From: Lophium mytilinum
Lineage: Eukaryota
Direction of reading: 5' to 3'
DNA: 64,000 nucleotides
Assembly: GCA_010093605.1 (NCBI GenBank)
Contig: MU004181.1
Span: 1,922,001 to 1,986,000, forward strand
Position 1 is the first letter of the stretch, and each line of letters begins with the position of its first letter. This document shows positions 149-38,498 of this stretch, in pieces. The position numbers were made by a program, and so were the translations under genes. Under the pieces are notes generated by a model, which saw only the letters and a program-made list of their open reading frames with translations, did not search any database and was not told where the DNA came from.

Positions 149-1279
149 ATGGAGCAGAATATCGGCTTTATAGGTGACAGCCGCTGAAATTTGCTCGCTA
201 TAGATGGATCAAACTAATAGTATCAAAGGACTCGGAGCCATGGGCTATCCAATGGCTAAGAACATAAGAACCAAGATGAACCAACAATCAACTCTATGGG
301 TCTATGATGTACAGAAAGAGGCCTGCGAGAGATTTAAGCAAGAATTCATGGGTTATGGACCGATATCTATCGCGAACTCAGCAAAAGAAGTCGCCCAGAA
401 CGCTTTGACCATCGCCACGATTGTACCTGCGGGCCACCATGTCCGTCAAGTCTTTTTAGATGAATCAGATGGCGTAATAGCCGCGAAAAGATTGCCACAT
501 GACAAGGAGCGACTATATCTGGAGTGCAGCACCATTGACGTAGCGACGGCTCGAGATGTTGCGCAGAAGCTCGAGACCATGGGTATGGGGCGTTATGTTG
601 ACTGTCCGGTATCTGTACGTCTATGTCCCTCCGATGCTTGAACGTTATTTGATGATCTTCCTCTCGCAGGGCGGCGTGCCGGCAGCAGATTCTGGGACAC
701 TGTCGATGCTGGTAGGAGCCACGAAACCCGCTCCTGCAGAAGCTGAACAAGGTGTGGGTAAGCGATTGCAAGCTTTACTGCTATGGATGGGCGATGCGAA
801 GAAGCACTTCTACTGCGGTGGTGTAGGCTCAGGCTTGGCTGCAAAGATATGCAACAACTATCTGTCGTGTACGATCCTACTGGCTAACGCCGAAGCCATG
901 GCGACTGGCGTCAAGCTTGGTTTGGACCCGAAACTCTTGTATGAGGTCATTGCAAACTCCACGGGACAGAATTTCATGTGCGATCACGTCTGTCCCGTTC
1001 CCGGCGTCGTCCCTCATGCCCCGAGCAGCAACGGGTATAGACTGGGATTCAAGGCGCAGATGTTGTCCAAAGACGTCGGGCTAGGGGTTGAGGCTGCGAA
1101 GAGTGTTAATATTAAACCCTCTATTGGCGAAGCTGCTGTAGCCGTGTTTGATCAGGTTGGTAAGGATGAGCGATGTATCGTAAGTTTTGCTTGCTCAGGA
1201 TAGCATTGAAGCCCCTTCTGATGCTGTCTAGGACCGCGATGCATCTGTCGTGTATCGATTTCTTGGGGGGCCAGAATAG
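149..1279 (+). CDS. beta-hydroxyacid dehydrogenase (3-hydroxyisobutyrate dehydrogenase / 6PGD-like family), copy A, multi-exon
   Basis: ATG 149 gives MEQNIGFIG, spliced to LGAMGYPMA (Rossmann GxGxMG). Also DCPVS|GG and the catalytic Lys motif AAKICNN. Last exon DRDASVVYRFLGGPE ends at TAG 1277-1279. Three GT-AG introns. Confidence 0.88.
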
Positions 1280-1497
1280 GCCATGTCTCGATAGCGGACG
1301 GCAGAAGTCCTGCAGGGCCCACAAGGTTGGAGGGCGAATCTTGAGGTCAGCTAGACGAGCCGACTGAGTGTTCAGAGTGCCTGAAGGCACGCTCGCTAGG
1401 ATTATTTCTAGTGCGGCCGCGGTAGGTCAACCGTAGATATACGGACAAAGAGTATGAAACAGTTTCCACAGTCGTCCGTGTCCAGTCCCCAGTTCTG

Positions 1498-4400
1498 TCA
1501 GCGAGCAAAGGTCGCTGAAGACCTTTCCCCAAAACCTCTAGCTTTCCTTGAGCTACTTTCGTAGACCTTTGCAAGATCCATCAGAAGGCGGCCCATTCTC
1601 GTAGTGATTCCCCAAACCCAGACCTAGGATTGGATTAGCTGAATGAACACTACGTGGACTAAACAGCGCGACATACGTCGGTCATCAATGAAGCCCAACT
1701 CTTTACAATAGCAGCTGCAAGCGAATCGTTCTCGCTGCACTCGATGTCCATTCCCTCAAGCGCTACTTTGACTTGTGAGATGATCTCGGCTTCCGCATGG
1801 GTAAGTGGAGTGTCGCTTGATTGATCCTCGAGACAGTGGATCCATTTTGAAAGCAGTAGAACTTGGCAACACTCATCAGTAAAGGTAAAGTAGATCGGCT
1901 TGAGCTGGGAACTTACCGCAGCCCCAGCCTGCGACAGCATGCTCGACGCTCCAACTTATCGCTGCCGTCTTCTGCACAAGCAGATAGCCCGCTTTTGACG
2001 GCACAGAGAATGCTTCACACATGTTCGCCATTGCCTTAATAATGAGAGGACTTCGCTCTTGCCTAGCAGCAACGAATCGTGTCAATAGTCTGACGTTCTC
2101 TTCCGGACTGTTGAGGAGGAGTACGATGCCATCAGGCATACTTGCATTAAGGAATAGTCGCGTATAGGCGACACGTAGCATAGCTTCGCAGTTTAGAAGT
2201 AGCGGCCCTTCAGGATTGTTCCACAGGGACTCGATGCCTTCTGGTCTAGCAAGTTGCAAGACTTCGCGACATCTTGCAAGCGTTGTCAAGGCATTTGAGA
2301 GCAATGTATTTGGCGCGACACCTGATAGATCAGAGAAAGGAGAGATATGTAAGTGGGTCAATTGGCTTAGGTTCCACGCGTACACGTTGACCGCGTGTGT
2401 GATGACAAGTGCAGTGAATCCCGACACATAATAGGGCGAATATTCGGAACTGTCGTTCGTCGTGCCTGCGAGCATGTCTTCCATCACGTCTCGTATGGTC
2501 TTTGTGGGTGATGATAGTTCGGAGTCTCGCAGGGCTCGCCACTCGTCAGCAGTTGAAGCATTCCATAGATTTTCCTCTTTGAGCACCTCGATCTCAAGGT
2601 CCTGCGTAATGCCGAGGCCGGGAGGAAGACCATACACGATCACGAGAAGGCTGCTGCAAATGAACCCAGCACACAGAAGCCGCTTAGTGGACTCGATTTG
2701 AATCCATTCCTGCCATTGAACTTCTCCGTACTGGCGACTTTTGGCTAACAGGGCAGATCGTCGAGATCGATGGTCCTTGGTCGTGTAAGTTCAGTTCATC
2801 AACAAGAAGTCAGCGTCACTCACCGTCGTAAATACTCCCAGCCTGTCAAGCTCCGACTTCATTATCCCACTGTTGCTACCAAGCGCAGCATATAGCAGCA
2901 GAAGAGTGCGCGCCTGCATGAACCACAGTGGCCTTAATTCCACCAGATGACTCGCTTCTTGCTCTTCCGTAGACAAACTATAGTTTGACTTGACCGGAGA
3001 TGGATAACCATGCCCTGCAAGCTCCGTCTCCAACATACTGGCACTCATTAAATATAGCTTCTGAGCTTTCTGACGATCAAGACGGTATAATGCTCCAATG
3101 CAACACATTGCAAAAATGAGAGGACTAGGCACTTCAGACACCAGGAGCGAAGGCAAATGAATGATAGGTAAATGCCGGTGGAAGCAATCCAGATAGCCAC
3201 TCAACAAGTGCTGCAGCTCTCGACGGTTTTTGAAAGGGAGTTGAAGCTCGCTCTTATCTAACCGTTGATAGGCATCAGCACAGACTGATTGAAATGCAGC
3301 GTCGTCCACCACAAGCTTGGGCGGGTTCTCGGACTTCTCCTTCAGAATCATTGGCATGCGTATTCGATCGGTCCTTTCGGTTCCAGTATCGCTGGTAGAG
3401 TCCGAGAATTGTCCCGAAGGCGAGCCATCCGTGGAGTTTGGTAGTCCAAAACTGTAGGAATCCGAGATATGATTGGGGTTGTCCATATTCCTGCGTCCGT
3501 TCAAGGCTTGATTCTCTTGCTGTGTGATTTGATGGAAAAAAATCTCATTACTGACTCCTCCGATCTCCATATCAACATCCATGAAATCGAATGAACGGAG
3601 CGTGTTCTGTGCATCGTCCGATGACATTGTTTGCGGGGTTGGTAATGGGAAGACCTCGTCATTCTGGACAGGTTGCAATGATGGAGCATCATCAGATAGT
3701 CGTTGGCGCTTATTGCGACCTTGTTCGGCTTCGAAAAGATCGACATGGCTTTCCCAGTGTGATAATGATCCAAGTGGTGACGGGATTAATAAGTCACTGA
3801 GGTTAAAGTCGAAATGCTGAGAGCTAGCTATCGGAGATAGCGGGTGGATGGGCGAAGACTGTCCTCGAATCCGTGCAAACATTGGGGATGTTGATGTGCA
3901 ATGGCTTTTCTCTGGCGATTTAGTTGTTGTATTATTCAGTACGGCGGCGTTGGCGGTGAGCAAGAAGGGAGATACTGAAGACGCACGCGACGTCACGATA
4001 GTCGGATCGTATCTGATTGTATTCGGGTCGCCCGAAAAGGTGGCTCTCCTTGAAACAGTCGGCGTCTCATTATGATTCGCTAGAGTCTCGTCATCTGGTA
4101 CAGCGAGGTCCCTAATACTGGATGCATCTCGGCCCGTCTGGTTAGGAATGGTGTGAAGGTGGATGACATCGCGATCTTGCCCAGAAGAAGTATTGATATC
4201 GCCAGCGCCTTGCTGCTGTTTGGGATCACTGGGATTGACTAGCGCGTTGTATAGGTCGGCGTGGATGGTTCTCTCATGCCTTTTGACGAGATCTCTTGAG
4301 AATGGAAATCAAATTAACTATACTGAGCCTGACAGGTATTTGCAGTGGAGACATACCTGCGAGCATAAGACCTGTTGCAGAACTGACATGGAAATGGTCT

Positions 4401-4589
4401 TTCCTTTGTATGTGAAAGCTCGTGGCGAGAGCAGTGTTCGCTCCTCTTGAAGGCCTTGGGACAATACGAGCATTTGAAGGCATGTGTCGGCTTGGATTGA
4501 TTGGCGTTGTTAGTGCTATTGTTGGGTGCTGCCCGGCTGTCAAGAGGCCTATTCTGTACCGGAAAGGAATGAACAGACATCTGCAGCAT
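1498..4589 (-). CDS. C2H2 zinc-finger transcription factor (Adr1/AmdX-type) with fungal-specific TF domain, copy A
   Basis: Finger 1 FKCSYCPKAFKRSEHCSRH and finger 2 CQFCNRSYAR|RDLVKRH (intron 4295-4356). Middle domain YLDCFHRHLPIIH...AMCCIGALYR. C-terminal WSVEHAVAGW and VWVWGITTRMG, ending at TGA 1498-1500. Confidence 0.85.
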
Positions 4590-6251
4590 GTTTGGAGGTA
4601 TCTCAGAAAGTTCGCAGTCTTCGTCGAGTGTACTGAAGATGGACCACGGATGGATTTGTAAGAGCTAGGTTGCGACAATCTGGCGATGGAAAGGATTCTT
4701 GCCAAAAATGCGGGGTCCCGTCCGAGCCAGGGGCTGCCATGACTTGCCACCAAGCATACCTAGACACGGCAAGGAAAGACGGTCAAATCACACGCCACTC
4801 AGCAGTAATGCGTTCACGCACGTGCCGCCAGCCACTCCCTTAGTGCCAGCCATCCCATTGCATTTGCCGGTCGCGAAGTCTATTGCACGGACCTGGGTAT
4901 CCAATCCTTGAATTGACTCGGCAGCTGTGCCATGATCACTCATCCTCCAGTTGCTGGTTATGATTTGGTGAAAAGTTGAATGCTTTGACTGCTTCACAGC
5001 ATCAGCGGCCTCCTCCTCGACGGCGCTTCACAGCCTCTGTGCTATAGCTCTACAGTAAGTATCTAGAAGAGATCAACCTCATAGATTAATTGCATGGCAA
5101 CATTCACTCACATCCTCCTGGTAACACGCAGAACTGGTTGGGGATCTTGCTTTTACCATATATTACCCTAAAACTGCCCTGCCTGAGCTAGTCAAGATGG
5201 GGAGTGGGAAAACGAGAAAGCATGGAGACCCTGAGAAGTTTTCAAGAATTCCCAGGAGAAGAAACACCCATCATCTCTTCGAATAATCTCTCCAGTGCCT
5301 GGGGTTTGATTGCATCCTGAAAAGCTAGCGCACACATTATCAGTCACTCGTTTCCGACTGTTCCAGATCCAACTCCATGTCTCTAAATCAGTATCAACAC
5401 AGCCCATGCCTTGTCCCTCCCCCTGTCACTTCAGGTAGCCCATATGCGGCAAATCGAGACATCCCAAAAGTTGGGCGGCCAAAATCGATGCTGAGAGAGC
5501 AAGGTCAGATATTCATCCCCGTTGGTGCTTATGAGCTAGGGGTTGTGTCTTTTCAGCTCCAATGGTGAAAATGTTCATGCATTCGTGTTGGTTGACTGTC
5601 TCGTTATTATATCTGAACATATAGTCATCTTCAGCAACCTCCCGCTCAGGTTGCAATAAGTTGACTAGTTTATTTAGCGATTTAACCACTCTTGAGCAGT
5701 CCGAGTGTAACTAACTGTGAGCTAGAGATTCTCTCTTCACGTAGCCCATCCTGCTGTAAAGATGGATCCCGAAGTGGGGCTGTGATAATATTTAGGGAAA
5801 TTTATCATGATGTAAGGATGAAGCAAAGAGAACTCGACGATGATCTTTCCATAGGACATCCTAGAATTTTTATGCGGCATTCGTTCGTCGTCTTCGAGAA
5901 TGACACGCAAGGTGCTGTTGCCGAGGGTGTCAGAAGTCGCCGGATAAAGGCAGAGAAAAGAGATCGATATGTTATTTCTGACCTTATAGATACCGAACAC
6001 CCGTATGGCACTGATAAGGCCCACTTCACTGTTCTTTCTCGGTCGGCTAAGAGCTGGAGCTATATCGTTGGGAGCCTCTAGATAATAGGAGATCCCAATC
6101 TCCTGTAGTTGCTGCCTGCCCTCTCTCACGTCAAAATGCCGACATTGGCCAATCATTTTAGGACGATTTTGGGGATGAAGGCCAGTCTCTGCCAAGCCTA
6201 TTTACCCCATGAAGTGAAGTGAGGGGCCCCTTAGCGAGGGGCTTCCCCCTT

Positions 6252-6455: not shown

Positions 6456-7469
6456 ATGACAACCTACAACCTTAAGAATGCTGAGTTCGAGGCGTTGAAG
6501 GGGAAAGTCATTTTGATCACTGGAGCTGCGACTGGCATTGGAAGAGCTACGGTGGAGCTTGCACATAGTATGTCTTCACAAGCTGCTGCGCCAAAGCTAT
6601 ATACTGATACACCGGCAGAGTATGGGGCAACCGTTGCGATTGGAGATTGGAATGAAACAGAAGGCGCGAAACTTGTGGCCAGTTTGAAAGAGTGTGTTCT
6701 TCCTATTACTGACATTGCTTTTAGCTGATGTTGTGATATGTAGGCGCGTATTGTTCCGTAAATGCGACGTCACCAAGTGGTCGGACGTACTTGCACTCTT
6801 CGAGGAGACCCGCAAGACTTTCGGTATCATCCATGCGGTTCTTTCCAACGCTGGCGTCAACCAAGAAGACCTCCTTCTTGACCACTTCGATCTCAAGACT
6901 GGAGAGCTTCTCGCCCCAGATCGTAAAGTTCTCGATATCAATCTGACAGGGACACTTTACGTGGTCAAGTGTGCAGTACATTATTTCAGACAGTGGCCGG
7001 AAACACGAACCCAGATCGTGATGACTGGTTCTGCAGCCAGTTATATCGATACCCCCCCGCTTCACATTTACTGTGCTTCAAAGGCCGGGGTGCTGGGACT
7101 AATGCGCTCATTGAGGACACAGCTCGTCAAGGAAAACATCACCATCAACATGGTTGCGCCGTGGATGACTAGTAAGTTTCATATAGAACTGAGCCGCTTC
7201 CAAGCTGACTGCTATACTATGTAGTAACACCTATGCTGTTGCAAGAGATAGTCGATATGTGGGGAGATTTACCAGCCAACCGGCCTACTGGTGTTGGAAG
7301 AGCGATACTTCTACCAATAGTACGTCCAGAAGTGAATGGGAAGTCTTTCTTTGTGGCCGGCCACGAGATTGTGGATTTTGAAGACAAGCTTCATGATACG
7401 CAGCCGCAATGGATGGGGCAAAGCCTGAGTAAAGCCGTCGATGAAGGGCAACGGCGTCTTATTCCGTGA
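6456..7469 (+). CDS. short-chain dehydrogenase/reductase
   Basis: ITGAATGIG, NAG and YCASK (YxxxK) motifs spread over ORFs 6411-6728, 6694-7224 and 7233-7469, joined by introns. Confidence 0.9.
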
Positions 7470-7775: not shown

Positions 7776-9386
7776 CTAGTATTTGGTGTTTACGGCCTCA
7801 AGACAATCCCGCTCAATCAGCGCAGCGTGCTTCTCACTCCTGACTCTCACTTTCACAGCAAATGGCGCCTCATTCTTCGTTATTTGGGGAATTGTCATGG
7901 TATCGATCGGGTGATTCTGTTTGAAAGTCAGTGAGACCGCTTTTGAGCTAGCCTTGGTGTTATGCAGCATTGGGAATTGATGGCTAGATCGTACCTTGTC
8001 TTCGTCAAACTCAAAGCAATACAGCAGCCTTGCAATTGCGATCCAAACGTTCATTTCGCCGACCTTCCAGCCGACGCACACTCGTCGACCGGGGCCGAAT
8101 GCCCAGTGGCCTTTCAATGCGTTAGTGAGATGCTCGTTCATGAATCGCTCCGGCCAGAAGCGCTCTGGCTGCTCGTATTCTTTCTCGTTAAGTGCTATAG
8201 CCCACGCATTCCAGGTGAAAATGGTCCCAGCTGGAAAACGATAGCCTTCGTATTCGTCATCACGGACGAGCGATGTTGGTGCCCCAATCTCAGCAATATT
8301 CGGGCGCCAGCGAAATCCCTCTTTCACAACGGCGGTGATATACGGAAGAGCCTCCCGATCGTCCCATCCCGGGAGACGTTCAGCGTTCGCACCGCAAACT
8401 GCATCCAGCTGAGCGCGCGCTCTGGCAGGCCAATCTGGGTATGTTGCTGCGCCTGCGATGATCTGCCCAATACTGACGCGGGACGTATCTGAGCCAGCTT
8501 CCATGAGCGTCCCAAGAAGGAAGAGCTGCTGCGTTTCGGAAAACTTTGTCTCTGCCTCTTGTTGCTTCAAGAAATCCACGGCAAAGCATGGTTTTTGCGT
8601 CCCTGCGTTGATGCGAGCGTGGACTGCATCGAGCTCTCTTTTGTATACTTTTTCCGTCATGCGAAAGACTTTCTCGCCTCGCGGTCGCCACCACTGCAGG
8701 CGTTTAGGAAGTTTGTTGAAGATATTGAATCCGTCTACGAGGTTCACGCCCGGCTGCTGATTCTCCAAGAAGAGCTCGATTGTCTCGAAGAGCTCGCGAG
8801 TTTGCTCTGAGTCCAGATCCGTGCGAGTCCCAAAAACCACCGACATAATAACTGAGTTTGCAAAGCGGCCATTGGCGATATACCACTTGCCTGGATGGTG
8901 CAGGTAATCGTAGAGAAGGTGGCGAGATTCGAGGTCTTGGTACGGCTTAAAGATGTCCTGCGACCTACCCGCAAGGATGTTATGCATGATCTTGCGGAGG
9001 GCACGCCACCGGTCATCGTATGGCATGAGCACAATGCGTGAATCGCCTGACATGATACTCTGCGTCATGGGAAACGGGGGCCGGGAGCAGTAAATCGCTG
9101 CTCTACGCTCCAAAAGATCATTGACCACACGTGACGAGTTCAAAAAGACCCAGGTATTGCCACCAAAACTGCAGGTAAACATCTCTCCATACTTTTCAGC
9201 AAGCTTCTTTGCCCATGGTCCCTGCTGCACCAGAGGGATCTGAAATGTGTTACCAAATACTGGAACTCCGGGTACACGAGGCGGGAGCTTGTATTTTCGT
9301 GCCTTTAGATGGGATTGGAGGATACCGTAAGCAAGGAATAGGACTGGAGTGCCGAAAAGAAGCAGGAGGAAGAGAAAGCTATCCAT
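7776..9386 (-). CDS. cytochrome P450 (copy A)
   Basis: N-terminal TM anchor, Pro-rich hinge, I-helix EAGSDTS, KEGFRWRP (ExxR), PERF and heme motif FGPGRRVCVG. Probably one short intron near the 3' end (~7920-7995). Confidence 0.95.
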   Translation of the reverse strand: MDSFLFLLLLFGTPVLFLAYGILQSHLKARKYKLPPRVPGVPVFGNTFQIPLVQQGPWAKKLAEKYGEMFTCSFGGNTWVFLNSSRVVNDLLERRAAIYCSRPPFPMTQSIMSGDSRIVLMPYDDRWRALRKIMHNILAGRSQDIFKPYQDLESRHLLYDYLHHPGKWYIANGRFANSVIMSVVFGTRTDLDSEQTRELFETIELFLENQQPGVNLVDGFNIFNKLPKRLQWWRPRGEKVFRMTEKVYKRELDAVHARINAGTQKPCFAVDFLKQQEAETKFSETQQLFLLGTLMEAGSDTSRVSIGQIIAGAATYPDWPARARAQLDAVCGANAERLPGWDDREALPYITAVVKEGFRWRPNIAEIGAPTSLVRDDEYEGYRFPAGTIFTWNAWAIALNEKEYEQPERFWPERFMNEHLTNALKGHWAFGPGRRVCVGWKVGEMNVWIAIARLLYCFEFDEDKVRSSHQFPMLHNTKASSKAVSLTFKQNHPIDTMTIPQITKNEAPFAVKVRVRSEKHAALIERDCLEAVNTKY

Positions 9387-9848
9387 GATGCAGATTGTGA
9401 ATGCACGTCAATGATTGCGGGTCTTATTGCTGCAAACTGCCTATGAGAGGTTGGTGGTCGTAGATAGAATGCAAAAGCTGGAGCGCCGCTGAGGCATTTG
9501 AGATTCTGTTAGGGTCTTGAAAAGACTCCAGGAGTAGCCCCACCTTACCCCAATGTGGTAGTTGGTGAGTTGTTGACCCATGGAGTAGGCTGCGGGGTCC
9601 CCCCATTCCCCCTCATTGGGCGTAACCTAACCTAATAGGTGGTCGGTTCGAATTCCCGGAACGCCCGCGCTGTCGTTGGCGAGTGGCGCGGAGAGAGAAG
9701 TATAGCCAGACAAGCTGCTCACGGCTTACCACGTTCGGGGCCAGCTACTAGCACGGTCATTTTGGTATTCGTAAACGACGTCCCTCTGTGTATTTGGCCT
9801 TGTCGCCCCCTCGTCGATCGTAAAACCTGGCCCGTCCTGAATGGAAAC

Positions 9849-11765
9849 ATGGAAATCCTTCTCAGTCATCGCGACATAGGCACTATCAAAGGGATCAGAT
9901 CAGCCGGCGTAGCCCAATTCCTAGGGGTCAAGTATGCGGCGCTTGCTGATCGTCTCGCTCCTCCAACTCTAGTGACCAGCTATGCGGCCGATCCAATCGA
10001 CGCGACGACATATGGGTGCGTAACAAGCCTCCTACAGCGTTTCATGGCAGCTTGACTGACCATTACAGTCCTAGTGCAGTGTCTCCACCAATGGGATGCG
10101 ATATGGAGTTTGGCATCATCCAGCACTCGTTGCCCAAACCTCAACAGCTACCATCGTCAGATCTTGACTGTCTAAACCTAAATATCACTGTGCCGCTCGA
10201 TAGCTCAGGTGAAATACATACTGCAGGCAAATTACCTGTGTTTGTCTTCATCCATGGCGGTGGTTTTGGTATTGGAGCAAATTGGTGGCCGCAGTATGAT
10301 GCCGCCGAACTTGTGCGCCTATCCAAGGCTAAGGGGAAGCCGGTTATTGGAATCAATATCAAGTAAGATCACCGTTTAGCTCAACTCAAGCCTTTAGCCT
10401 ACATCTTTGCCGAGAGTACCATCTGAACAGACATGCAGCTACCGTCTTGGTGCGCTAGGGTTCCTCACATCGAAAGAGCTTCGTCAGGCTGGATATCCGG
10501 GCAATAACGGCCTCCGTGACCAGAGGGCTGCACTGCAATGGATCAGGAAATTCATTGGAGTGTACGGAGGGTCCTCAGATGAAATAACAGTTGTTGGCGA
10601 AAGTGCCGGAGCTTGTAAGCGACCTTTTTGCTGCTTCAGAGTGTGTGAAATTCTAATCATTGTGCTCTACCAGTCTCCGCGACCATGCTCCTACAATCCA
10701 AAGAACCTTTGATGAAACGTACTGCTGCGTTTGGGGGATCACCACTTCTGTTCAAACCTCTCCCACTGCCGGTCACCGAGTTCGCGTATGAGAGTGTTCT
10801 TCAAGCTTTAGGACTTGTCGACAAGTCGCCAGAGTCTCGTATCCAAGCTCTTTTAGAAATACCAACGGATGAGCTGTGGCAGAAAATTCCACCCGCAATC
10901 CCGATGATGCCCTTCATGGACGACGATATCGTGACTGCCGAACCGACCTTCGCCATGTTTTATGGTCCGCTCGATCGTACCGAGCTAGCCTTTCCAGGAC
11001 TCAAGTGGTGCGAGGGCCTCATGGTGGGAGACTGTCAGTTTGATGTAACTGACCCTTCCCTTCCTCTCGACTTCCAAACATGAGATTTCAAATCTCAGGT
11101 GTCTGTTTTCAGATAGTACTAACACGCAAGCCATATAGGGAAATGTCTTTGGCCACATCGGCCTCCACGATCGCAAGACCGGCATAGCTACCGCCTTCAT
11201 AAGGTCGGTCGAGGCCACACTGAAATCTAATTCGACAGCAACGTCCGCTATTCTGGAGGCATACCAAATAAGGACGGATACGAGCGACGACGACGCACTG
11301 AACTCCATCTTGCAATTCGCAAGCGACATCACGTTCTACGCGCCAGCAATCACCATCGCCGCGTATTGGCCCTCCACCAGGAACTCCAAATCGTACCTGT
11401 TCCACTTCAATGAACCAAATCCGTGGGATGGTCTATACAAAGGCAAGGCGTCGCATGTTCTAGATGTGGCATACCTGTTCCAGAACTTCGCGAAGCATTT
11501 GACCGACGATCAGAAGGCCGTTGGTCGCGCTCTTGGTTCGGATTTCATAGAATTTGTGAATGGAGGTTCACCGTGGCAACCCGTTTCGGCTGGAAAGATG
11601 TGTGCTAGGGTTTATGGCCCCAGCGACGCAAAGGAGACTGCTAAGCTGGTTGATTCAAGCGACACGGTGGAGTCGGGGAGGAACAGAAAGATTCACGACC
11701 TTGCCAGCCTTGTTGGCTGTGATGCTCTTGCAGAAGTCTATATTAAGTTCTTCCAGGGAACGTAA
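9849..11765 (+). CDS. type-B carboxylesterase (COesterase family), copy A, no signal peptide
   Basis: FLGVKYA, DCLNLNI, FIHGGGF, N|YRLG, GLRDQRAALQWI, GESAG nucleophile elbow and the His motif ASHVLDV. Several introns. Confidence 0.92.
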
Positions 11766-22354: not shown

Positions 22355-22437
22355 CCCCTCAAAGTAGCCCCTCAAATTGACCCCTCAAAGTGACCCCTCA
22401 CCCCGCACCCCACATCTCCACAAAATGTGTGCCCCGC
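22355..22437 (+). promoter_or_regulatory. four CCCCTCA units at 13-bp period followed by three CCCCRC boxes
   Basis: CCCCTCA starts at 22355, 22368, 22381 and 22394. CCCCGC at 22401, CCCCAC at 22408 and CCCCGC at 22432. Lies ~340 bp upstream of the alpha/beta hydrolase. Confidence 0.5.
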
Positions 22438-26894: not shown

Positions 26895-27496
26895 TGGGCG
26901 TGTCCACGATGGGGGAGGGGAGTGGTGGAGGCGGGGATGGGTGCGGAGGGGATCGTGTCGGGGGTGGATGCGAAGCTGAGCAGTATGGTTGCCAAGCCGG
27001 CATGTTCGAGCTGCTCGGTCTGCCGAGCGTGAAGGCCAGGGGAGCAGCCGATCAAGCGGGGAAGGGGCCTGGGCGGTCTGTGCTGAGGCTAATTTTGACC
27101 ATCCTTCTCGACATTTTGCACACAGAACTCGCATGCACCGAAAGCTTCTACAGAGCTATATTCTAGCTACACGATTGCACTTTGGCCTTATCGTAGTCAT
27201 CAGGAATACTGCCATTGCGTTCTTGACAGGCTCAAAGGCAGTCTTACTATCTCCCAATAGTCTGAACCACGCTCAAGTTCCAGGACAATATCATCGGTGC
27301 TTTCAGACACAAATATCGTGCTAGAACGGACTCTTCGTGCATGACTCAAGCATTCCTAGACGGAAAATCAACATTGACACTGCGAGTGCTCGCCTTGCAT
27401 TATCTAGCTAATCTTCTGCGTATTTAGTAAGCCTTATACACCATGTTCATGGGCACGCGTCCCTCACTGCGCTATCACGTGGCTGTCAGGTACTTA

Positions 27497-27528: not shown

Positions 27529-27781
27529 ATTACCGCCCTGGGTTTAGCGTCAATTCCCCATACTATCGTCGGCCAATGGCAGGTCAACGTCAGCGAGGGT
27601 CTGGACCTACAATGCATCTCGATTGAAGCCACAATTGTGCCAACTTGTAAATAAAAAGGATGTCAGGGTAGCTAGAAGATGTTCAAATCAATCGTGCAAA
27701 CGGCCAGCCTCTCTTAGAACAGCACGCTCTTCTTCAGTCTACTCTTGTACTTTACGTTCTAGCTCAGATTCGTTTACCACC

Positions 27782-29452
27782 ATGGGCTTTGGAATCCTCG
27801 AGGACAAATCAGACCTCGCTCATGTTCCGGGCACTGTTCTCCTCGCCGAGAAGATATCACAACCTGGTGACGTTCTCGCACAACTCAAGCATGGCAGTGG
27901 AGCAGATGCTCAGATCGTACTCGTCCCACAGCCTAGTGAGGACCCCAACGACCCCCTGAATTGGCCATACTGGAAGAAACTGTCCATTGTTGCCATTCTT
28001 GTGTACGGCTCTTGCCTATGCGCCGCAACAGTCGGCCCTTTGCTGAACGCAAGCATCGCTGTGCTCGCCATGGATTTCAAGACATCTTTCAAGGACATCA
28101 CTCTCATGTCTGGCTATCAACTCCTGGCTGCTGGCTGCTCCGGCCCGATTGTGTCTGCTCTGGCGAGGAAATATGGAAAACGTCCAGTATTCTTAGCTTC
28201 TTCCCTCTTCGCAGTAATAGGGTCAATTATGGGCTCGGCATCCCATTCTTACAATACTCTACTTGCGGCTCGCATCGTCCAGGGGTTCTCTATTTCCGCA
28301 TACGAGTCCATCATATTCTCAGTTATTCCGGACCTCTTCTTCCTCCACCAACGTGGACTGTTCACGGCCATCGTGAGCTTTACGCTAAGCGCTGTCTCCA
28401 ATTTGAGCAGCGTTGTCGCAGGGGCTGTCACGAACAATCTCGGATGGCATTACCTGTTCCACCTCCTCATAGTTACCGTGGGCCTACAGCTCATCCTGCT
28501 ATATCTGTTCGTGCCAGAGACGACTTATCATCGCGACCGTCTTTACGAAGTTGACCTAGCCTCGACCGACAACCTCCAAGAACTGGCAGAAGCTGAGGCT
28601 CGGCACGACCCAAGAACACAGAAAGCTATCCAGGACCTCAAGATCGAGAAGACCGTTACAAACACCAGCTCAGTACCTCCGCCCAAGAAGACTTTCATCC
28701 AAGAACTTGCAATATTCACGGGCACCCACAGCGACGAAAGCCTCATCCAGCTCGTCTTCGCTCCGGTATTGTGCTGTCTCAATCTGGGAGTTCTGTGGGT
28801 GGTCGTCGTCAGTGGCACCGTGACGTCCTTTTACGTCGGCATGGCCTATGTCGCCGCCCAGATTTTCTCTTTCCCTCCATACAACCTTACCGCAGCCGGC
28901 GTGGGCTACTTGTCCCTTGGACCATTTCTTGGCGGTGCACTCGCCTCCATCGTGTTAGGTCTAACCAACGACCCTCTGATTATCTGGTTCACAAAACGCA
29001 ACAAAGGCATCTTCGAGCCTGAAATACGTCTTTTACCAATCATTTTCAGCTCCGTCGGTGGTGTTGGCCTTATTCTATACGGTGTGCTCGCTCAAAGAGG
29101 AGACAACCTTTACCTAGTGGACTTCATGTGGGGCCTTATGCTCTTCGGAGCCGTCTTCATCTTCACGTCGGCCTCGGCGTACGCTATCGATGCGTACCGG
29201 GACATGAGCAGCGAGCTGTTCATTGCCAGCATGATGTTGAAAAACTTCCTATTTTACGCTTACAGTTACTTCATGAACGACTGGGCCGCTTCTGCTGGAC
29301 CAGCCCAAGTGTTTGAAGTTTTTGGCGGCGTGTACTTTGCACTGGCGCTGACTACCATTCCTCTTTATATCTTTGGAAAGCGATATCGAAGCTTCTGGCA
29401 TCGTCATAACCTTTTGGAGATGCTTCATGTTCGCACTCACTCTGCGTTTTAG
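27782..29452 (+). CDS. MFS transporter (Hol1-like / DHA1-related)
   Basis: MGFGILED..., PQPSEDPNDPLNWP, KYGKRPV, PETTY and EPEIRL. About 12 hydrophobic segments, intronless. Confidence 0.92.
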   Translation: MGFGILEDKSDLAHVPGTVLLAEKISQPGDVLAQLKHGSGADAQIVLVPQPSEDPNDPLNWPYWKKLSIVAILVYGSCLCAATVGPLLNASIAVLAMDFKTSFKDITLMSGYQLLAAGCSGPIVSALARKYGKRPVFLASSLFAVIGSIMGSASHSYNTLLAARIVQGFSISAYESIIFSVIPDLFFLHQRGLFTAIVSFTLSAVSNLSSVVAGAVTNNLGWHYLFHLLIVTVGLQLILLYLFVPETTYHRDRLYEVDLASTDNLQELAEAEARHDPRTQKAIQDLKIEKTVTNTSSVPPPKKTFIQELAIFTGTHSDESLIQLVFAPVLCCLNLGVLWVVVVSGTVTSFYVGMAYVAAQIFSFPPYNLTAAGVGYLSLGPFLGGALASIVLGLTNDPLIIWFTKRNKGIFEPEIRLLPIIFSSVGGVGLILYGVLAQRGDNLYLVDFMWGLMLFGAVFIFTSASAYAIDAYRDMSSELFIASMMLKNFLFYAYSYFMNDWAASAGPAQVFEVFGGVYFALALTTIPLYIFGKRYRSFWHRHNLLEMLHVRTHSAF

Positions 29453-30021: not shown

Positions 30022-31552
30022 TCAATGCTTCGAGTTCCCATTCAGAGTAGTGCTCTTCAAATTAGCCATAATCTTCTCAACTTCCTCCTTGTGCCCCGAA
30101 AAATTATCCACCAGACTGTCCCACATTTTCGGCTCATGCTCATGCTTCTTCTTGCTATTCCATGCGTACTCCGTGATGGTGAATGGCCTGCTACTCTCAA
30201 ACATGAAAGCGATGGAACCCTTGGAGATTTGCATGACTGGAGGGTCGGCCTTCGAAGCCTCGGCGAACTCTTCATACGCAACACCATGAGGTACCATGCC
30301 GCACTCGAACGAAACGCTGCCTGGCTGGAACTCATCAGATCGGCCGCCGTAATCTCCATATATGAGGCCCATGAGCTCAGACGCCGCGTTGCGATGATAG
30401 TAAGGCGGCCGATACGTGTGAGACGCAACGTCCCAGCGCGGTGAGAAGATCAAAATGTCTGCCAGCGGAGCCGTCGGATCGCGCGACCTCGCGGTCAGGA
30501 CACAGAAGATGGACGGGTCGATGTGGTCTACTGAGATGGATCCCACATTGACGAACTTGGTGAGATCGTACTTGAATGGCACGTAGTTGCCGTGCCACGC
30601 AACGACGTCGAATGGGCAGTGCCGCTGGGTGCTCTTAAAGAACTTGCCGCCAAGCTTGTAGATAATCTCCCATGGATCGTCTTGCGTGACTTCGTAGGCC
30701 GCCTTGGGGTGGAGGAAGTCGCGAGCGTTTGCGAGCCCGTTGGCTCCAAGAGGACCTAGCTCGGGAAGTTCGAAGTTTGAACCCCAGATCTCGAGAATGT
30801 ATCCTCGGGTAGGGCCATCGACCTTGACTTTGAAGCGTTGGCCTCGTTGGATGATGCAGATCTCGCCGGGTTGAACGTAAAGATGTCCATACTCGGTTTG
30901 GATATCTAGCGCACCCTGTTGTGGCACAATGCAGAAGTCTCCGTCTGAGTTTACAAAGGCTCGCTTCTCCATGCTTTGATTGCACAGATAGACGTGTGTA
31001 GCTAGACCTTCCCTCAACATGGGATCGCCGGCGCCTGCGATCGTTTTCAGCCCGGAAACGAAATCGACCTTGTCGCTGCTCTCCGGAAGATCGAAAGGCA
31101 GCCAGGCCAGCTGAGTCGGAGAGACGCGAACCCGAGGATTTATAGGGAGGAAGTTTGATTCCGTATCATTATTATCAGGCATGTCGGTCTACGGCCATAG
31201 TTAGATCTAAATATATGAATGGGTACGAGAAAGTACTCACAAAGCCTTGATGAGCAACCGCAGGCCGTGCGCGATACAACCATGCCTTCTTGTTCAAATG
31301 CCTCGGAGCAATAAAAGAAGAAGCAGTCAGTTGCTCGGCGTATAATCCAAAGCGAACGCATCTGGGGCTATTTTGACCCTGTGGAATGGTACCGGGGATA
31401 GCTTCAGACTCAAAGGAATTGCCTAAGCCGGCCATGTACTCGTATGGATCATTCTTCCGAGTAGCGAACGACGGGACGGCGCCATTCTTCTGCGTCTCGG
31501 CCCAGTGGAAAATATCCTGATACTCCTTGGAGTTTGACAGTTCGGCAGGCAT
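30022..31552 (-). CDS. hmgA: homogentisate 1,2-dioxygenase family protein (divergent paralog)
   Basis: SEAIPGTIPQGQNSP, GLYAEQL, WLYRARP, PELGPLGANGLANARDF, DVVAWHGNY, DHIDPSIF, and the iron-ligand motifs RPPYYHRN.ASE and PHG. One intron at ~31180-31240. Confidence 0.93.
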
Positions 31553-32713: not shown

Positions 32714-33848
32714 TTACAGATCTGCTCTAGCATTGTCTCCAGCCCAAGCCCTTCGAATAAGTTCTTGGATCGACGCCTTCTCCAGCGGTCTCGGGTTAGG
32801 GTATGGCTTTGATAGTGCAATCTCAGCCGCCTTGGCGACATCTTCTTCCTTTAGACCAAAATCTTTCAGTGCCCTTTTTACTCCTAGTCGTTCTAGTAAC
32901 AGATTTAATCCCTTAATTGCATCTCCGTCGCTATCCGGCAGCACTTCTGCAAGCTTCCGCATGGCTTCCGGAATTGCGGGAGCATTGTACGCTAGGGCAT
33001 GGGGCAGAACGATCGTATGTGTCTCGGCGTGAGGGAGATTGAAAGAACCTCCGAGAGTGTGGCAGAGTTTGTGGTGAAGTGCCATGTCGACACTACCAAG
33101 GCAAAATCCGCAAAGCCACGCGCCGTATAGAGCATCTTTCCGGGCATCGATGTCACTTGGCAGTGAAACTAGGGCCGGAAGTGAGCGGGCAAGAGACCGT
33201 ATACCTTCAAGCGCGAGGACGCTGACGATTGGATTCTTATTGGCTGCATAGAGAGCCTCCACTGTCAAGAAGAGTTGCTTATCAGTATGGTCATGGTGAC
33301 TTTCGTGTCTGGAGAGGCTGACCTGAGTGCGCAATTGCATTCACTCCACTTGTCGCACTCATCATGGCGGGCAATGTGAGTGTGAGGTCGATGTCATAGA
33401 TGACTGTTGTAGGAAGAATCGCTAAATCTCTGCGCGTTGTCTTGAGCCCGTCCACCGTCTCACCCAGTATCGGCGTCATCTCGCTCCCAGCATAGGTGGT
33501 CGGAATGCAGATATGCGGCTTGCCGGTTCGTACGCTGAGTGCCTTGCCGAGCCCAATAGTGCTGCCACCGCCGAGCGAAACGAAGCTATCGACACCGAAC
33601 GCGTTCACCACGCCTAGTGCTTTCTCGGTGATGTGGATGGGCGTGTGCATAGTCGCTTCGGAGAAGACATGGTCGGCGGCCGCTCCAAGAGACTTGGCCA
33701 GCTCTAGAATGGAACCTTGTTGCTCTGGTGTGGAGAGAAAGAGTGGCGTATGCACTTTCAGCCGTGCGAGCTCTGCGGCCAGGGTCGACAGTGTGCCTGA
33801 GCCAAATATGACTCGGCTGGGATTTCCGTTGTATTCAAAGCTAGCCAT
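32714..33848 (-). CDS. maleylacetate reductase (iron-containing alcohol dehydrogenase family)
   Basis: RVIFGSG, ATMHTP, GGGSTIGLGKA, IPTTYAGSEMTPILGET, SGVNAIAH and MALHHKLCHTLGGSFNLPHAETHTIVLPHA. One intron. Confidence 0.93.
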
Positions 33849-34279: not shown

Positions 34280-36057
34280 ATGTCTGTCACACTGAATCAT
34301 GCCTCTCTCGGTGCCCGCCTGGAAGGACTCGAGGTTGGGAAGCTCTGGCAGTTCAGAGGCATCCAGTATGGAACAATACCCGCCAGATTTGCGCGAGCAT
34401 GCCCGAAGAAGCTTGAGGGTAGAGTGGACTGTACTCGTTACGGGTATTGCTTCTCAGACTGGTGGTCAACACAAATGTTTTCGCTGACTTGAGTAGGCCT
34501 CGTTGTCCGCAACTGAACTTCGATGTGCGACACCTTCTCCGTATCCCTCAAGATATCGAGCTGCCCGCTGAGCCAGAAGACGAATTTCAATGCCTAAACC
34601 TAGACGTGACGATGCCGCCTCTCAAGCCAGGGCCCAGGCCTCAGTTGCTGCCTGTTTTATTGTGGATTCATGGTATGCTTTGCTGTGTTTCGAGTAAGAG
34701 CAGTGCTTACCTAATTCTGTTCTAGGTGGTTCCCAGATTGCGACATTCGGGAGTTCGGCTTCAGGATTATGTGGTCAGTTTCTTTGCTTCGTATTCCGTC
34801 CCCATCTCTACTAGACAACTTTAACGCAAACCCTGTACCACAGATATGACCAGAATTGTGTCTGACTCGGTAGATCTTGGGTACCCGTTCATAGCGGTGG
34901 GTATTCAATATCGGCTGAACATGTTCGCTTTTGGGAACGGCAAAGGAGAGAAGAATCTAGCTCTCAAAGACCAGAGGCTAGCGATCGATTGGGTTGTGGA
35001 ACATATTGGAGGATTTGGCGGCGATCCAGTATGAGTTCCCAGCACTCTAAAGTTATACAAAGTCAGTGTTTGTGTCTAACCTAAGCTAGGCAAACATAAC
35101 TCTTGCTGGCGAGAGCGCGGGCGCGGTCTTCTGCCATGCACATGTCGTAGCTCAAGCTCCGATACACCAAGCGATACTTTCTTCGGGAACACTATATCTA
35201 TCGCCACCATTACCAGTCCAGAATGGCACTGCTCTCATAAACAATGTGGCTAGGGAGCTCGAGAAACTGGGCCACAAAGATATGGAAACTGCTCCACCGC
35301 ATATTCTTCTCAAAGCGCAGGCCAATCTCGGCATTAAATCTGTATGGATTCAAATGGAACCTGCCTTTGAGGACTGGGAAAATAAAACGGGAAATACTAC
35401 GCAGTTACTCATTGGAGATGTCGAGTTTGAGGTACGCTTCTACTACAGCTTTTCAATGCGGAAGGAGACTAACATAGTCAGAGTATCATATGGAGGAATG
35501 GAATCGAGATGCTAGAGCCCGATTACATTGCAAAATGCTTCGACAACCTCGGGGACGACAGTGCGGCTGTGAAGCGTTTGTACGGCATCTTGCCCGACCG
35601 AAGTACATCTTGCAAAATCGGAGCTCTTGACTTGATTACCGACCAGAGGTTCGCGCTACCGGTGGAGAAGGTTCAACGGCTATGGTTGAACTCTGGAAAG
35701 CCTGCCTACCGGTACTTACTGGATCAGCCAAATCCCTGGCAATCGTCGAATCGTTCTCATCATGCTGTGGATTTGGTATTTCTTTTCGGCGTATTCGACA
35801 CTTCAAATCCAGCAGCAGAAGCTGTTGGAAAGGCGATGCGGACGAAATGGATAGAGTTCATAAATGGGAGGGCCCCGTGGGATTCTTCTCGTGCTTTCGC
35901 GTTTGGGCCGTATGGAGAGGCGCAAAGTATCGATCAATCTGTGGTAGACATGCGGAGACGACGAGCTCATCTAGACCTCGTGAGCAAAGTAGGTTGGTCA
36001 AAGTTTAACGCGGCAGTTGTGCCACTGATTATGGGCCGTGTCAGCCTACTCAATTAA
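34280..36057 (+). CDS. type-B carboxylesterase, copy B, no signal peptide
   Basis: QFRGIQYG, EDEFQCLNL, LWIHG, QYRLN, LKDQRLAIDWV..HIGGFGGDP, LAGESAGA and the His motif SHHAVDL. Multiple introns. Confidence 0.9.
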
Positions 36058-36605
36058 TACTATCGACTCAAACAGCTCGCAGGTGATGATTGAATCCACC
36101 TGATGTCCCTCTGAGGAAATACAAGCGATGTGGCCATGATTTGTAGTTCGATATTAACTTGATCAAGGTAGAAAAGGAACGAAACAAAGTGATAGCAGGA
36201 GTGACGGCTGATCAAGGAACAGCCACTGCTAATTATTCATTGACCAGAACCAGCAACTCCATGGGTTGAACGTGGAGAATTGCTCACTGCGCTCTTACGG
36301 CGTACATATCGACCGGAACGTTCACTTACCCATGACGGAAAGCCATTGCGAGAGTGGCAGGAGAGGGTTCTCGCACAACTCTGCTCAGTCCTGATTGAGC
36401 GTAAGGTGTTTGACTGCAACGGGGCTCTTTTCCCGACTCCACACCATCTAGCAAACCCCGCAAAACCCCCAGAATGCGGGGTATGACAGCCTTGCGTAGT
36501 ATATCTAACCGTTACAGTTGGAGCAGGGGGTCTTCGCTTTGAAAGGTTGAGCTAAATATATACCGGGCTGGCACTGTAGCCATATGAGCTGAGAATCGAC
36601 CTCCA

Positions 36606-38498
36606 ATGAGTTTTTCCAAACTATTGCCTCATTTGACGATGGCCCAACTTACCCCAATCGCTTTTGCAGCGATCATATCACTTTTCCCCATTTACGTGGT
36701 GGTGCGTGCTATTGCTGATCCATTGAGGAAAGTGCCTGGCCCATTTTGGGCACGTTTTTCGCGATTATGGTATCTACGCGAAGTTTACAACGGCGCATTT
36801 GAGAAGCGCTCTCTTCAACTTCATGAGAAATACGGTGAGGTTACGATGTCATCTTACCAGGATCTGCACGGCAGCTGAACATTCATGTAGGGCCTATTGT
36901 GCGCATCGCTCCGAACGAGTATAGCATAGACGATCCGACAGCGGTCAAGACCATATACGGGCTGGGAACCAAATTCTATAAAGTATGGCAAGTCTACTAA
37001 CTATTCTTCGCCTCACCATCACTTTTCCAACAGGACAAAAATTTCAGCTAATCATCGCCCTGAAGTCGCCGTGGTATATTGCTTCCGGAAATCCAGATCC
37101 AGAACATTTGGACCTCTTCACGGAACGCGACCCCACAAAGCATGCGCTCATGCGACGGAAGGTTGCTGGCCTATACTCTGCATCTAGCTTAGTACGCATG
37201 GAGCCTTTTGTTGATGAGTGTGTAGGGCTGTTTGTACAGCGCCTAAATGAGGTTGCTGCAACAGGTCGTTCAATCAATGTGCAGCATTGGATGCAGTGTT
37301 ATGCATTCGATGTTATTGGATATATCACAGTATGACATTCTTCCGGTGACAACTGTAGATTTTGTGTTCTGATGCTAATCGCATGCAGCTTTCGAAGAGA
37401 TTCGGGTTCCTGGACCGCTGTGAAGACGCACCGGGAATGTTTACAAGTCTCCATTCCTATCTGAAATATGCTTCACGCGTCGGGGTATTTTCAGAGGTGC
37501 ATTCAATAGCATCCAAGTTGTTAGCAAAGCTCGGCAGCGGTGGTATGTCCCACATGACGAACTTCGTTGGCGCCCAGCTCCAAGACAGACAGCAGCGACT
37601 CGCAGAAAAAGAGGGCGGAGGCACAGATGATGACTTTATGTCGAAAGTACTCGCGCAGCACAAAGCGGATCCTGAGAAGTTCACCTTCAATGATGTTTTC
37701 ACTACGTGTATTACCAACATTGGTGCTGGTTCTGACACGACATCGATTTCGCTGTCTGCGGTTATGTACTATCTAATTCGTAATCCGGACGTGCTCGACA
37801 AGGTACCGTACCACACTCGCCTGCGTCTGCAAAAGCAAATCATAGGTCGAGCTAACGGGGACACCTGTAGCTTCGCAAGGAAGTCGATGAAAAGTTACCG
37901 CCGGGAAGCACTGTCGAGAACTTCTCGTTTCAAGACGCCCAAAAGTTGCCATATCTACAAGCGTGCATTAAAGAAGCTCTCAGAGTCCATCCGGCAACTG
38001 GCTTACCTCTCGGACGAGTGGTACCAAGCGGTGGTGCAGAGATCATGGGAGTGCTTTTCCCGGCCGGAGTAAGTAACTGAGACTACTTGTGTTGAAGCTC
38101 TGTATTAATGTTCCATCAGACGGTGGTTGGTATCAACACATGGGTTGCCCATGCTAACAAAGAGGTTTTTGGGCTCGATGCGGCTTCATATCGGCCAGAG
38201 AGGTGGTTGATCAACGATAAACAGCAGTTATCTCGAATGGAGGGTTATTATATACCGGTATTCTCCACATCAATTCAATCGCTATTGTGCAACATACTCA
38301 TATAAATGTTTTTAGTTCGGCCACGGATCGCGTACCTGTATCGGGAAGAACATAAGCCTCTTGGAAATATCGAAGCTTGTGCCCATATTGGTGCATCGAT
38401 TCAACTTCAACCTAGTTAGACCAGAGGAAGCCCTTAAATGCCAAAATGTCTGGTTCGTTAAGCAAACAAACATTGAATGTCGGGTGTCGCTCAGATAA
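36606..38498 (+). CDS. cytochrome P450 (copy C; pisatin-demethylase-like group)
   Basis: VPGPFWARFSRLWY, LHEKYG|PIVRIAPNE, I-helix IGAGSDTTS, KEALRVHP, YRPERW and heme motif FGHGSRTCIG. Stop TAA 38496-38498. The start may instead be ATG 36639. Confidence 0.9.

Follow-up and report, generated by a model that had tools for sequence, protein, structure and literature searches.

Gene content of the locus

The window analysed here, a 64,000-nucleotide stretch of the Lophium mytilinum genome (assembly GCA_010093605.1, contig MU004181.1, positions 1,922,001 to 1,986,000 of the forward strand, numbered here from 1), carries in its left part a dense run of genes for oxidoreductases, hydrolases, a transporter and regulators, among them a ring-cleavage dioxygenase of the homogentisate dioxygenase (HGD) family, and is considered for its possible role in the catabolism of methoxylated phenols. 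A sequence-only reading had listed 18 consecutive genes in this run; all of them were recovered by Pfam at 204-38498, in the same order and orientation, and the strands agreed with the six divergently transcribed pairs it had described. Out of 158 stop-to-stop frames of at least 100 aa, 112 were compared with Pfam (the remaining 46 being shadow frames overlapping longer ones), together with 101 additional frames, mostly of 45-99 aa, lying within and between genes. Computed splice models are approximate and served as local BLAST queries only. The features were the following:

204..1279, plus strand: gene 1, HIBDH1, a beta-hydroxyacid dehydrogenase resembling 3-hydroxyisobutyrate dehydrogenase (3-HIBDH); NAD_binding_2 6e-21, NAD_binding_11 4e-21; 3' end approximate
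1659..4943, minus strand: gene 2, TF-A, a fungal-specific transcription factor (TF) domain protein; exon ends approximate
6456..7469, plus strand: gene 3, short-chain dehydrogenase/reductase (SDR); adh_short 1.5e-22; model approximate
7776..9407, minus strand: gene 4, P450-A; p450 1.7e-56
9639..11765, plus strand: gene 5, type-B carboxylesterase A; COesterase on three frames; start approximate
12230..13966, minus strand: gene 6, P450-B; p450 8e-52 and 1.7e-12
14426..14839, plus strand: gene 7, carboxymuconolactone decarboxylase-family (CMD) protein; CMD 1.2e-20
15187..16711, minus strand: gene 8, group A flavin monooxygenase (FMO), P0254, 436 aa; FAD_binding_3 1e-31
17303..18354, minus strand: gene 9, HIBDH2, 3-hydroxyisobutyrate dehydrogenase-like; NAD_binding_2, NAD_binding_11
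18705..19643, minus strand: gene 10, metallo-beta-lactamase-fold (MBL) hydrolase; Lactamase_B_2 5e-7
19988..21919, plus strand: gene 11, Zn2Cys6 transcription factor; Zn_clus 3e-10, Fungal_trans 1e-16
21536..22358, minus strand: unlisted spliced transcript, possible small 19th gene; RNA joint
22775..23662, plus strand: gene 12, alpha/beta hydrolase; Abhydrolase_1 2e-24
23939..27134, minus strand: gene 13, TF-B, C2H2 and fungal-TF-type regulator; alternative start 26894
27782..29452, plus strand: gene 14, MFS transporter; MFS_1 1e-27
30022..31552, minus strand: gene 15, putative MhdA-type dioxygenase (HGD paralogue), P0001, 492 aa; HgmA_N 1e-80, HgmA_C 3e-46
32714..33848, minus strand: gene 16, maleylacetate reductase; Fe-ADH 8e-23, ADH_Fe_C 5e-41
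34280..36057, plus strand: gene 17, type-B carboxylesterase B; COesterase on four frames; ends approximate
36639..38498, plus strand: gene 18, P450-C; p450 on five frames; start approximate

The proposed right end of the cluster at 38498 fits the last P450 exon, which holds the haem region at 38316-38495, and beyond 38.5 kb Pfam displayed unrelated genes (Opy2, MFS, TPMT, OTU, WSC, peroxidase, HET, exonuclease and ING). The left edge of the cluster coincides with that of the window, the start of HIBDH1 lying 204 bases from it. Across the 64-kb window, Pfam matched no domain of the KS, AT, A, C or terpene synthase kind, in line with the earlier statement that polyketide synthases (PKS), nonribosomal peptide synthetases (NRPS) and terpene synthases are absent. 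The accompanying statement that the run contains no housekeeping gene became uncertain, because the second 3-HIBDH-like gene (gene 9, 38% identical to gene 1) strongly matches genuine 3-hydroxyisobutyrate dehydrogenases (human 2i9p, E 4e-47).

The ring-cleavage dioxygenase

The protein encoded by gene 15 was 100% identical to KAF2502682.1 of Lophium mytilinum (Dothideomycetes, Mytilinidiales). Its large exon shared 73-86% identity with 119 others among the matches listed, from at least five Pezizomycotina classes, and the full-length protein shared 74-83% identity with 16 members, including those of Aspergillus fijiensis and Pc21g22500. Two proteins from Aspergillus section Nigri were similarly close (P0076, 78% over the full length; both P0076 and P0082, 80% over the large exon); together with Pc21g22500, they are the nearest proxies for A. 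niger NRRL3_10111 and share the gene 15 clade. Residues His369, Glu375 and His405 did not vary among 16 clade members. In human HGD (1ey2) they align with the metal ligands, numbered 361, 367 and 397 in the chain and presumably His335, Glu341 and His371 in the human protein.

A pattern scan of metagenome contigs yielded 80 HGD-type loci in 59 non-redundant groups (L numbers below denote such loci). Eight groups were only 43-49% identical to gene 15 and included four high-GC, presumably bacterial, loci in which HGD adjoins fumarylacetoacetase (FAH) or HPPD. A quick maximum-likelihood tree with 63 rows placed gene 15 within a fungal clade of 57 rows (SH-aLRT 100) and the FAH/HPPD-linked HGDs (43-47% identity) outside of it; this tree comes from a quick search only, canonical fungal HmgA is not among its rows, and the placement of the long-branch row L080 inside the fungal clade is not trusted. 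On visual inspection of the few rows with names, the internal order of the clade seems roughly to track the species tree and classes, while Aspergillus and Penicillium rows cluster with loci displaying the MFS, esterase, HGD order reported in A. niger. On these comparisons, gene 15 appears to be one of the MhdA-type paralogues of about 490 aa, a clade set apart from the HmgA of the tyrosine pathway. Its earlier naming as a homogentisate dioxygenase is therefore not retained in the sense of the tyrosine/phenylalanine enzyme, the FAH and HPPD neighbours being carried by the outgroup. The neighbours recorded within the clade were esterases, MFS transporters and flavin monooxygenases, and in no case FAH or HPPD.

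The HgmA Pfam domains of gene 15, and the relatives of P450-A that are named 3-hydroxyphenylacetate 6-hydroxylase or phenylacetate 2-hydroxylase, could still be taken for a homogentisate, tyrosine or phenylacetate cluster, with gene 15 as HmgA and P450-A as a PhacB-type 3-hydroxyphenylacetate 6-hydroxylase. The Aspergillus nidulans phenylacetate/homogentisate route comprises the P450s PhacA and PhacB, HmgA, FahA and MaiA, and shares with the window the same broad P450 family supplying an HGD-family dioxygenase with a 2,5-dihydroxy aromatic. The window differs in its MhdA-clade dioxygenase, in the reductase and esterase downstream and in the absence of FahA and MaiA: no FAA_hydrolase, GST or HPPD/Glyoxalase match was obtained from the 112 long and 101 mostly short frames, and neither fumarylacetoacetase nor maleylacetoacetate isomerase/GST nor HPPD was detected in eight related fungal loci scanned with Pfam. 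As the FAH/HPPD-linked HGDs also stand outside the gene 15 clade, and the recurrent esterase neighbour described below fits a methyl-ester cleavage product and not maleylacetoacetate, we consider a homogentisate-type cluster very improbable.

Candidate lower-pathway partners and the methoxyhydroquinone pathway

In A. niger, the FAD enzyme VhyA, annotated as salicylate-hydroxylase-like, converts vanillate to methoxyhydroquinone (MHQ), and MhdA, an HGD paralogue with 50.8% identity to HmgA (expected 55.5 kDa with its His tag), opens the MHQ ring to a methyl-ester dienoic acid (PMC8336404). Deletion of omeA, a carboxylesterase gene adjoining mhdA, causes 4-oxo-monomethyl adipate to build up; the unlinked maleylacetate reductase NRRL3_04956 and the omeA-adjoining MFS NRRL3_10109 were co-induced about 16-fold, induction of the reductase being seen on four guaiacyl substrates, and the reductase step is described as proposed, not proven (PMC8336404). 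FAMeDB counts the MHQ pathway among eight fungal central pathways and classes OmeA as a type-B carboxylesterase (PMC13094099), and the four A. oryzae MHQ-pathway homologues carry unrelated locus numbers (PMC12335040).

Genes 14-17 of the window correspond to this A. niger pathway (PMC8336404), so that the sequence-only claim of a combination matching no fungal catabolic cluster fails, because this kind of pathway is already known. Shared features are an HGD paralogue about 490 aa long, a type-B carboxylesterase, an MFS transporter, a maleylacetate reductase, an FAD monooxygenase upstream and the linkage of esterase and dioxygenase. The window differs in that the reductase gene lies between those for the dioxygenase and the esterase, whereas it is unlinked in A. 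niger and A. oryzae; the step proposed for the reductase gains support from its grouping here with the dioxygenase and the esterase. Further differences lie in the extra genes of the window (three P450s, a second esterase, three regulators, several oxidoreductases and hydrolases) and in its FMO, which is PnpA/HspB-like and does not resemble the salicylate-hydroxylase type of VhyA.

The identification of gene 16 as a maleylacetate reductase held, since both its Fe-ADH and ADH_Fe_C domains and its best PDB matches (3jzd, 3e-62, then the maleylacetate reductases 3hl0 and 3w5s) agree with it. Both esterases carry a GESAG motif, at about 10596 in gene 5 and at about 35108 in gene 17, while the C-terminal frame of esterase B gave no PDB match. 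Gene 17 is the candidate counterpart of OmeA: esterases of the B type adjoin HGD in the loci with the A. niger order L023, L031 and L055, and B-type esterases 45-53% identical to it do so in L001, L023, L031, L045, L049 and L055. Esterases of the A type adjoin the HGD homologue in L016, L051, L055 and L071.

Putative upstream hydroxylases and remaining genes

Gene 8, whose exons were mapped with the annotated protein P0254, encodes an FAD_binding_3 enzyme of the PnpA/HspB type, which agrees with its earlier assignment to the group A flavin monooxygenases. Its PDB matches were led by PnpA (3e-83) and HspB (9e-66), the next structure reaching 6e-25. We take it that PnpA and HspB replace the para substituent of a phenol by a hydroxyl group, giving a hydroquinone or quinone. 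A second PnpA-type monooxygenase of L. mytilinum (P0360, 56% identical to gene 8) is located elsewhere on the same contig.

Relatives of P450-A were named 3-hydroxyphenylacetate 6-hydroxylase (PhacB), phenylacetate 2-hydroxylase (PhacA), PatI and YanC; PhacB and PatI presumably hydroxylate para to a phenolic hydroxyl group. With a PnpA/HspB-like FMO and a PhacB/PatI-like P450-A, it is therefore plausible that genes 4 and 8 both lead to substituted hydroquinones, the kind of compound used by the dioxygenase. P450-B was 29% identical to P450-A and 30-34% to its named relatives. For P450-C, local BLASTP (E up to 1e-5) returned neither P450-A nor P450-B nor any of nine named relatives of P450-A.

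Names such as PatI, YanC and TerC could also point to the tailoring half of a secondary-metabolite cluster, with P450s, esterases, SDR and FMO acting as patulin-, yanuthone- or terrein-like tailoring enzymes and a backbone enzyme, for example a PKS of the 6-MSA type, located left of the window, where the cluster abuts the edge. The relatives in question (PatI, 57-69% identical to window proteins; TerC, 65-66%) carry source-given names and are not characterised enzymes themselves. No backbone domain (PKS, NRPS, terpene synthase or DMATS) was found in the 64 kb, PKS or NRPS occurred in none of the eight related loci scanned with Pfam, and genes 15-17 match A. niger enzymes whose catabolic roles have been shown or proposed; a biosynthetic cluster is thus improbable.

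Among the remaining genes, the CMD protein matched structures 4g9q (1e-21) and 2af7 (2e-14), and no CMD homologue was found beside the related loci, which leaves its proposed place as a lower-pathway step unsupported. The alpha/beta hydrolase (gene 12) displayed weak PDB matches, including the 3-oxoadipate enol-lactonase 2xua (5e-14), and the MBL hydrolase had no close solved structure, its Atlas matches being generic Ascomycota MBL clusters only. The beta-ketoadipate pathway was considered and set aside: neither an intradiol dioxygenase nor a cycloisomerase was encountered in the window, which offers merely a CMD-family protein and a generic alpha/beta hydrolase.

Gene neighbourhoods in other fungi

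Neighbours were counted in 24 non-redundant metagenome loci of the gene 15 clade with flanks of at least 7.9 kb. A type-B carboxylesterase adjoins the dioxygenase in seven of them (four of the B type, two of the A type, one of these two being an esterase fragment at a contig end, and one with both), and two further short loci carried one esterase each. An FMO orthologue (56% identity) adjoins HGD in 2 of the 24 (L009 and L026), and one locus displayed a weak SDR only.

The richest neighbourhoods were those of L026 and L045. Within 20 kb, L026 holds the dioxygenase, the FMO (56%), a HIBDH1-like gene (56%, 93% coverage) and a P450-C-like gene (46%, 76% coverage), along with a P450-B-like gene (36%), a weakly similar C2H2 TF beside HGD and an MBL homologue (about 30%). 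L045 encodes the dioxygenase (78%), esterase B (53%), an MFS transporter (41% identical to gene 14 over 97% coverage), an SDR (47%) located 2.5 kb from the HGD homologue, an alpha/beta hydrolase (47%) and a weak MBL homologue (about 30%). In L023 (2831-4606) and L031 (3508-5256), an AMP-binding gene of the CoA-ligase type, not found in the window, precedes the trio of MFS, esterase and dioxygenase.

Locus tags of named genomes showed further pairs. P450-A lies next to the FMO in Aspergillus nanangensis (FE257_003631, 003630), Dothideomycetes sp. NU459 (g8105, g8106) and Cladophialophora psammophila (A1O5_02200, 02201), and HGD next to the FMO in Sporothrix eucalyptigena (010645, 010644), next to P450-A in Cylindrodendrum hubeiense (g2411, g2410) and four genes apart from the FMO in Drepanopeziza brunnea. 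Merged gene models of Colletotrichum united esterase A, esterase B and FMO in three of four cases, and esterase B and FMO in the fourth. In Melanomma pulvis-pyrius, presumably of a different order from Lophium, relatives of P450-A (86%) and FMO (85%) share one 82-kb contig. The confamilial Mytilinidion resinicola also reached 85% for the FMO, and the next P450-A match after Melanomma only 70%; the closeness of this pair may reflect its transfer or a strong constraint.

Altogether, 13 of the 18 genes had a homologue beside the dioxygenase or its partners elsewhere, with MFS, SDR, P450 and hydrolase neighbours counted as homologues of large families and not as orthologues. Because P450-A, FMO, HGD and both esterases recur as neighbours in other fungi, in varying pairs, these comparisons indicate a gene association beyond chance for this core. 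The proposal of an aromatic catabolic cluster (uptake, hydroxylation, ring fission, acid funnelling) was upheld to that extent, the whole being catabolic-looking and the co-clustering positive for the core.

Transcripts and regulators

RNA evidence came from the contigs of one public run (condition unstated), placed over 18600-38500; the depth of these contigs cannot rank genes, and uncovered parts constitute no evidence. Eight joints skipping 50-111 bases were present in the RNA run (seven GT..AG and one GC..AG on the gene strand) and none of them in a DNA run. Spliced RNA contigs showed transcription of the dioxygenase, esterase B, the Zn2Cys6 factor, TF-B and the alpha/beta hydrolase, while MFS, maleylacetate reductase and P450-C were without contig cover, which says nothing on their expression. 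RNA-supported introns were located at 31189-31240 in gene 15 and at about 35430-35481 in gene 17. When gene 13 was joined across its five supported introns, a single open frame resulted, at most 945 aa long and encoding two C2H2 fingers. Gene 11 was covered by contigs over 19710-20240 and 20313-21359, its first ATG lying at 19988, and gene 12 lay within one RNA contig.

The regulators TF-A and TF-B share 35% identity over 505 aa and are paralogues. TF-A matched Fungal_trans on two frames, and its short upstream frames held no Zn cluster or C2H2 domain in Pfam.

The unlisted minus-strand transcript at 21536-22358 is convergent with the Zn2Cys6 gene and overlaps its 3' end. Its intron at 21886-21970 (joint 21885>21971, CT..AC) was seen in the RNA run only, and its frames 21536-21898 and 22038-22358 gave no Pfam match.

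Proposed pathway and alternatives

We infer, with a probability of about 0.6, that the window contains a consolidated cluster for the catabolism of para-substituted methoxylated phenols (guaiacyl type), degraded via an MHQ-type intermediate to 3-oxoadipate; the substrate and the unity of the cluster are both inferred. Gene 8 would exchange the para substituent for a hydroxyl group, giving a substituted hydroquinone, and the P450 of gene 4 may hydroxylate para to the phenolic hydroxyl to give the same product type, with possible contributions of P450-B and P450-C to hydroxylation. By homology to the enzyme assayed in A. niger, gene 15 would open the ring beside the methoxy group to a methyl-ester dienoic acid, in which gene 16, by homology to a step only proposed in A. 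niger, would reduce a double bond. Gene 17, homologous to the gene whose deletion accumulates the ester, would then strip the methyl ester to yield 3-oxoadipate. Transport would be ensured by gene 14, and control by the paralogous regulators of genes 2 and 13 together with the Zn2Cys6 factor of gene 11. Esterase A and HIBDH1 probably belong to the cluster; SDR, alpha/beta hydrolase, MBL, CMD and HIBDH2 would stand outside the proposed steps. Lophium grows, we assume, on conifer wood and bark, which are rich in guaiacyl lignin; this would fit and is not evidence.

Several observations weigh against this interpretation. The case for orthology to mhdA and omeA is built on clade membership, protein length and synteny, and not on a direct A. 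niger comparison. No salicylate hydroxylase occurred among the best 60 structure matches of gene 8, which is probably not the VhyA orthologue, because VhyA is annotated as salicylate-hydroxylase-like and gene 8 is PnpA/HspB-like; it would be a different enzyme with a similar outcome. Gene 14 gave no match to the esterase-adjoining MFS of L023, L031, L054 and L048, and the window transporter appears to come from another subfamily than that of L023, L031 and L054, which have the A. niger order. A maleylacetate reductase adjoins HGD in none of the 24 loci, this linkage being seen only in the window; TF-A, CMD, HIBDH2 and the Zn2Cys6 factor were never neighbours elsewhere in the loci and tags compared, and the entire 18-gene set was found in no other locus compared. 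The RNA set is a single run and not aromatic-induction data. That the 18 genes form one "complete route", as the sequence-only reading had it, is unproven.

Other such observations can be turned into a different explanation, namely adjacent independent units: a right MHQ module (genes 13-17, perhaps 18), a left detoxification or hydroxylation module (P450-A, esterase A, P450-B and FMO), and bystanders between them (HIBDH2, MBL, CMD, SDR and hydrolase). Window-like neighbours were missing from 14 of the 24 HGD loci, in three genomes P450-A lies beside the FMO with no HGD match tagged nearby, and three separate regulators occur in the cluster. A search for a shared promoter motif with k-mers of 7-10 bases in 12 upstream regions (7439 bases) found none, merely returning two weak GC-rich 7-mers in six regions each, and HIBDH2, resembling the genuine valine-pathway enzyme, may be an ordinary gene of the valine pathway or primary metabolism. 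Such a partition is nevertheless crossed repeatedly in other fungi: the FMO adjoins HGD in L009, L026 and Sporothrix eucalyptigena, P450-A adjoins HGD in Cylindrodendrum hubeiense, the two esterases and the FMO form one run in three of four merged gene models from Colletotrichum, and L026 unites homologues of genes 1, 6, 8, 13, 15 and 18. We thus regard independent units, the main rival, as rather unlikely, and keep the consolidated guaiacyl-type cluster as the preferred explanation.

The logic of the consolidated cluster has bacterial parallels. Bacterial hydroquinone pathways are encoded by pnpABCDEF (p-nitrophenol) and hapA-G (4-hydroxyacetophenone), the hap cluster including an esterase. 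They share with the window a monooxygenase leading to a hydroquinone, a ring-cleavage dioxygenase and then a maleylacetate reductase, which is HapF in the hap pathway (PMC12420386), and the best solved relative of the window FMO is PnpA of the pnp pathway. In contrast to them, the window encodes a ring-cleavage enzyme of the HGD type and not of the PnpCD/HapCD type, no benzoquinone reductase or semialdehyde dehydrogenase was recognised in it, and the esterase of the fungal MHQ route, unlike that of hap, acts after ring cleavage. A further likeness, drawn by description only, is that to PcHGD1 and PcHGD2 of Phanerochaete chrysosporium, HGD-family enzymes which cleave methoxylated hydroquinones without prior demethylation; as far as the citing sources give it, they are methoxy- and dimethoxyhydroquinone dioxygenases (Kato 2024, cited in PMC12420386 and FAMeDB), basidiomycete enzymes that arose by a recent duplication (PMC12420386).

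Remaining features of the window

Between the cluster and the Opy2-like gene lies a gap of about 2.7 kb (38500-41200) whose sole frame of at least 100 aa is 38739-39047; 36 frames from it gave no Pfam match. An assembly gap of 100 N occupies 44668-44767, and a nearby Pfam "Collagen" match (44563-44919) is probably low-complexity noise. The stretch at 54600-59400, between the peroxidase gene and the HET-domain gene, is AT-rich (GC of 0.32 in its core, 55500-58500), with a TpA/ApT ratio of 1.81, a (CpA+TpG)/(ApC+GpT) ratio of 0.24 and no open frame of at least 100 aa, and looks like the relic of a repeat mutated by repeat-induced point mutation. A tRNA scan of the window found none.

Implications for fungal degradation of lignin aromatics

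The MHQ route allows guaiacyl lignin fragments to be used without prior demethylation, and the genes known for it so far are mostly scattered in Aspergillus (PMC8336404; PMC12335040). In the portions available of the literature on MHQ with mhdA or with fungal gene clusters, nothing beyond the three A. niger neighbours was found. While the pathway is known, the large regulator-rich assembly, the linkage of the reductase, the PnpA-type monooxygenase and the cross-genome network of neighbours are new, because that literature, in those portions, describes no larger MHQ cluster.

More tentatively, a modular "hydroquinone funnel" not yet described may extend across Pezizomycotina, with the window as its most complete case. 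If so, PnpA/HspB-type ipso-hydroxylases and PhacB/PatI-type P450s would turn several para-substituted guaiacyl compounds into MHQ for MhdA, with vanillate, acetovanillone-type aryl ketones, guaiacol, conifer acetophenones and lignan fragments as candidate substrates, and with esterases of both types, a reductase of the HIBDH-like kind and C2H2 regulators dedicated to the funnel as constant companions. It would also provide candidates for missing fungal steps (alternatives to VhyA, O-demethylation by P450s, para-hydroxylation) and be the first case in which the proposed reductase step is linked to mhdA in a genome. On O-demethylation, reviews describe the gene for the veratrate demethylase as still to be identified and report that detailed characterisation is lacking for any fungal O-demethylase, and a search for fungal P450 O-demethylases of veratrate turned up only a bacterial enzyme. 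The locus offers testable candidates for the upstream enzymes, transporters and regulators of lignin-aromatic turnover, and its recurring yet shuffled neighbourhoods, spread over four fungal classes, make it a useful case of modular catabolic-cluster assembly.

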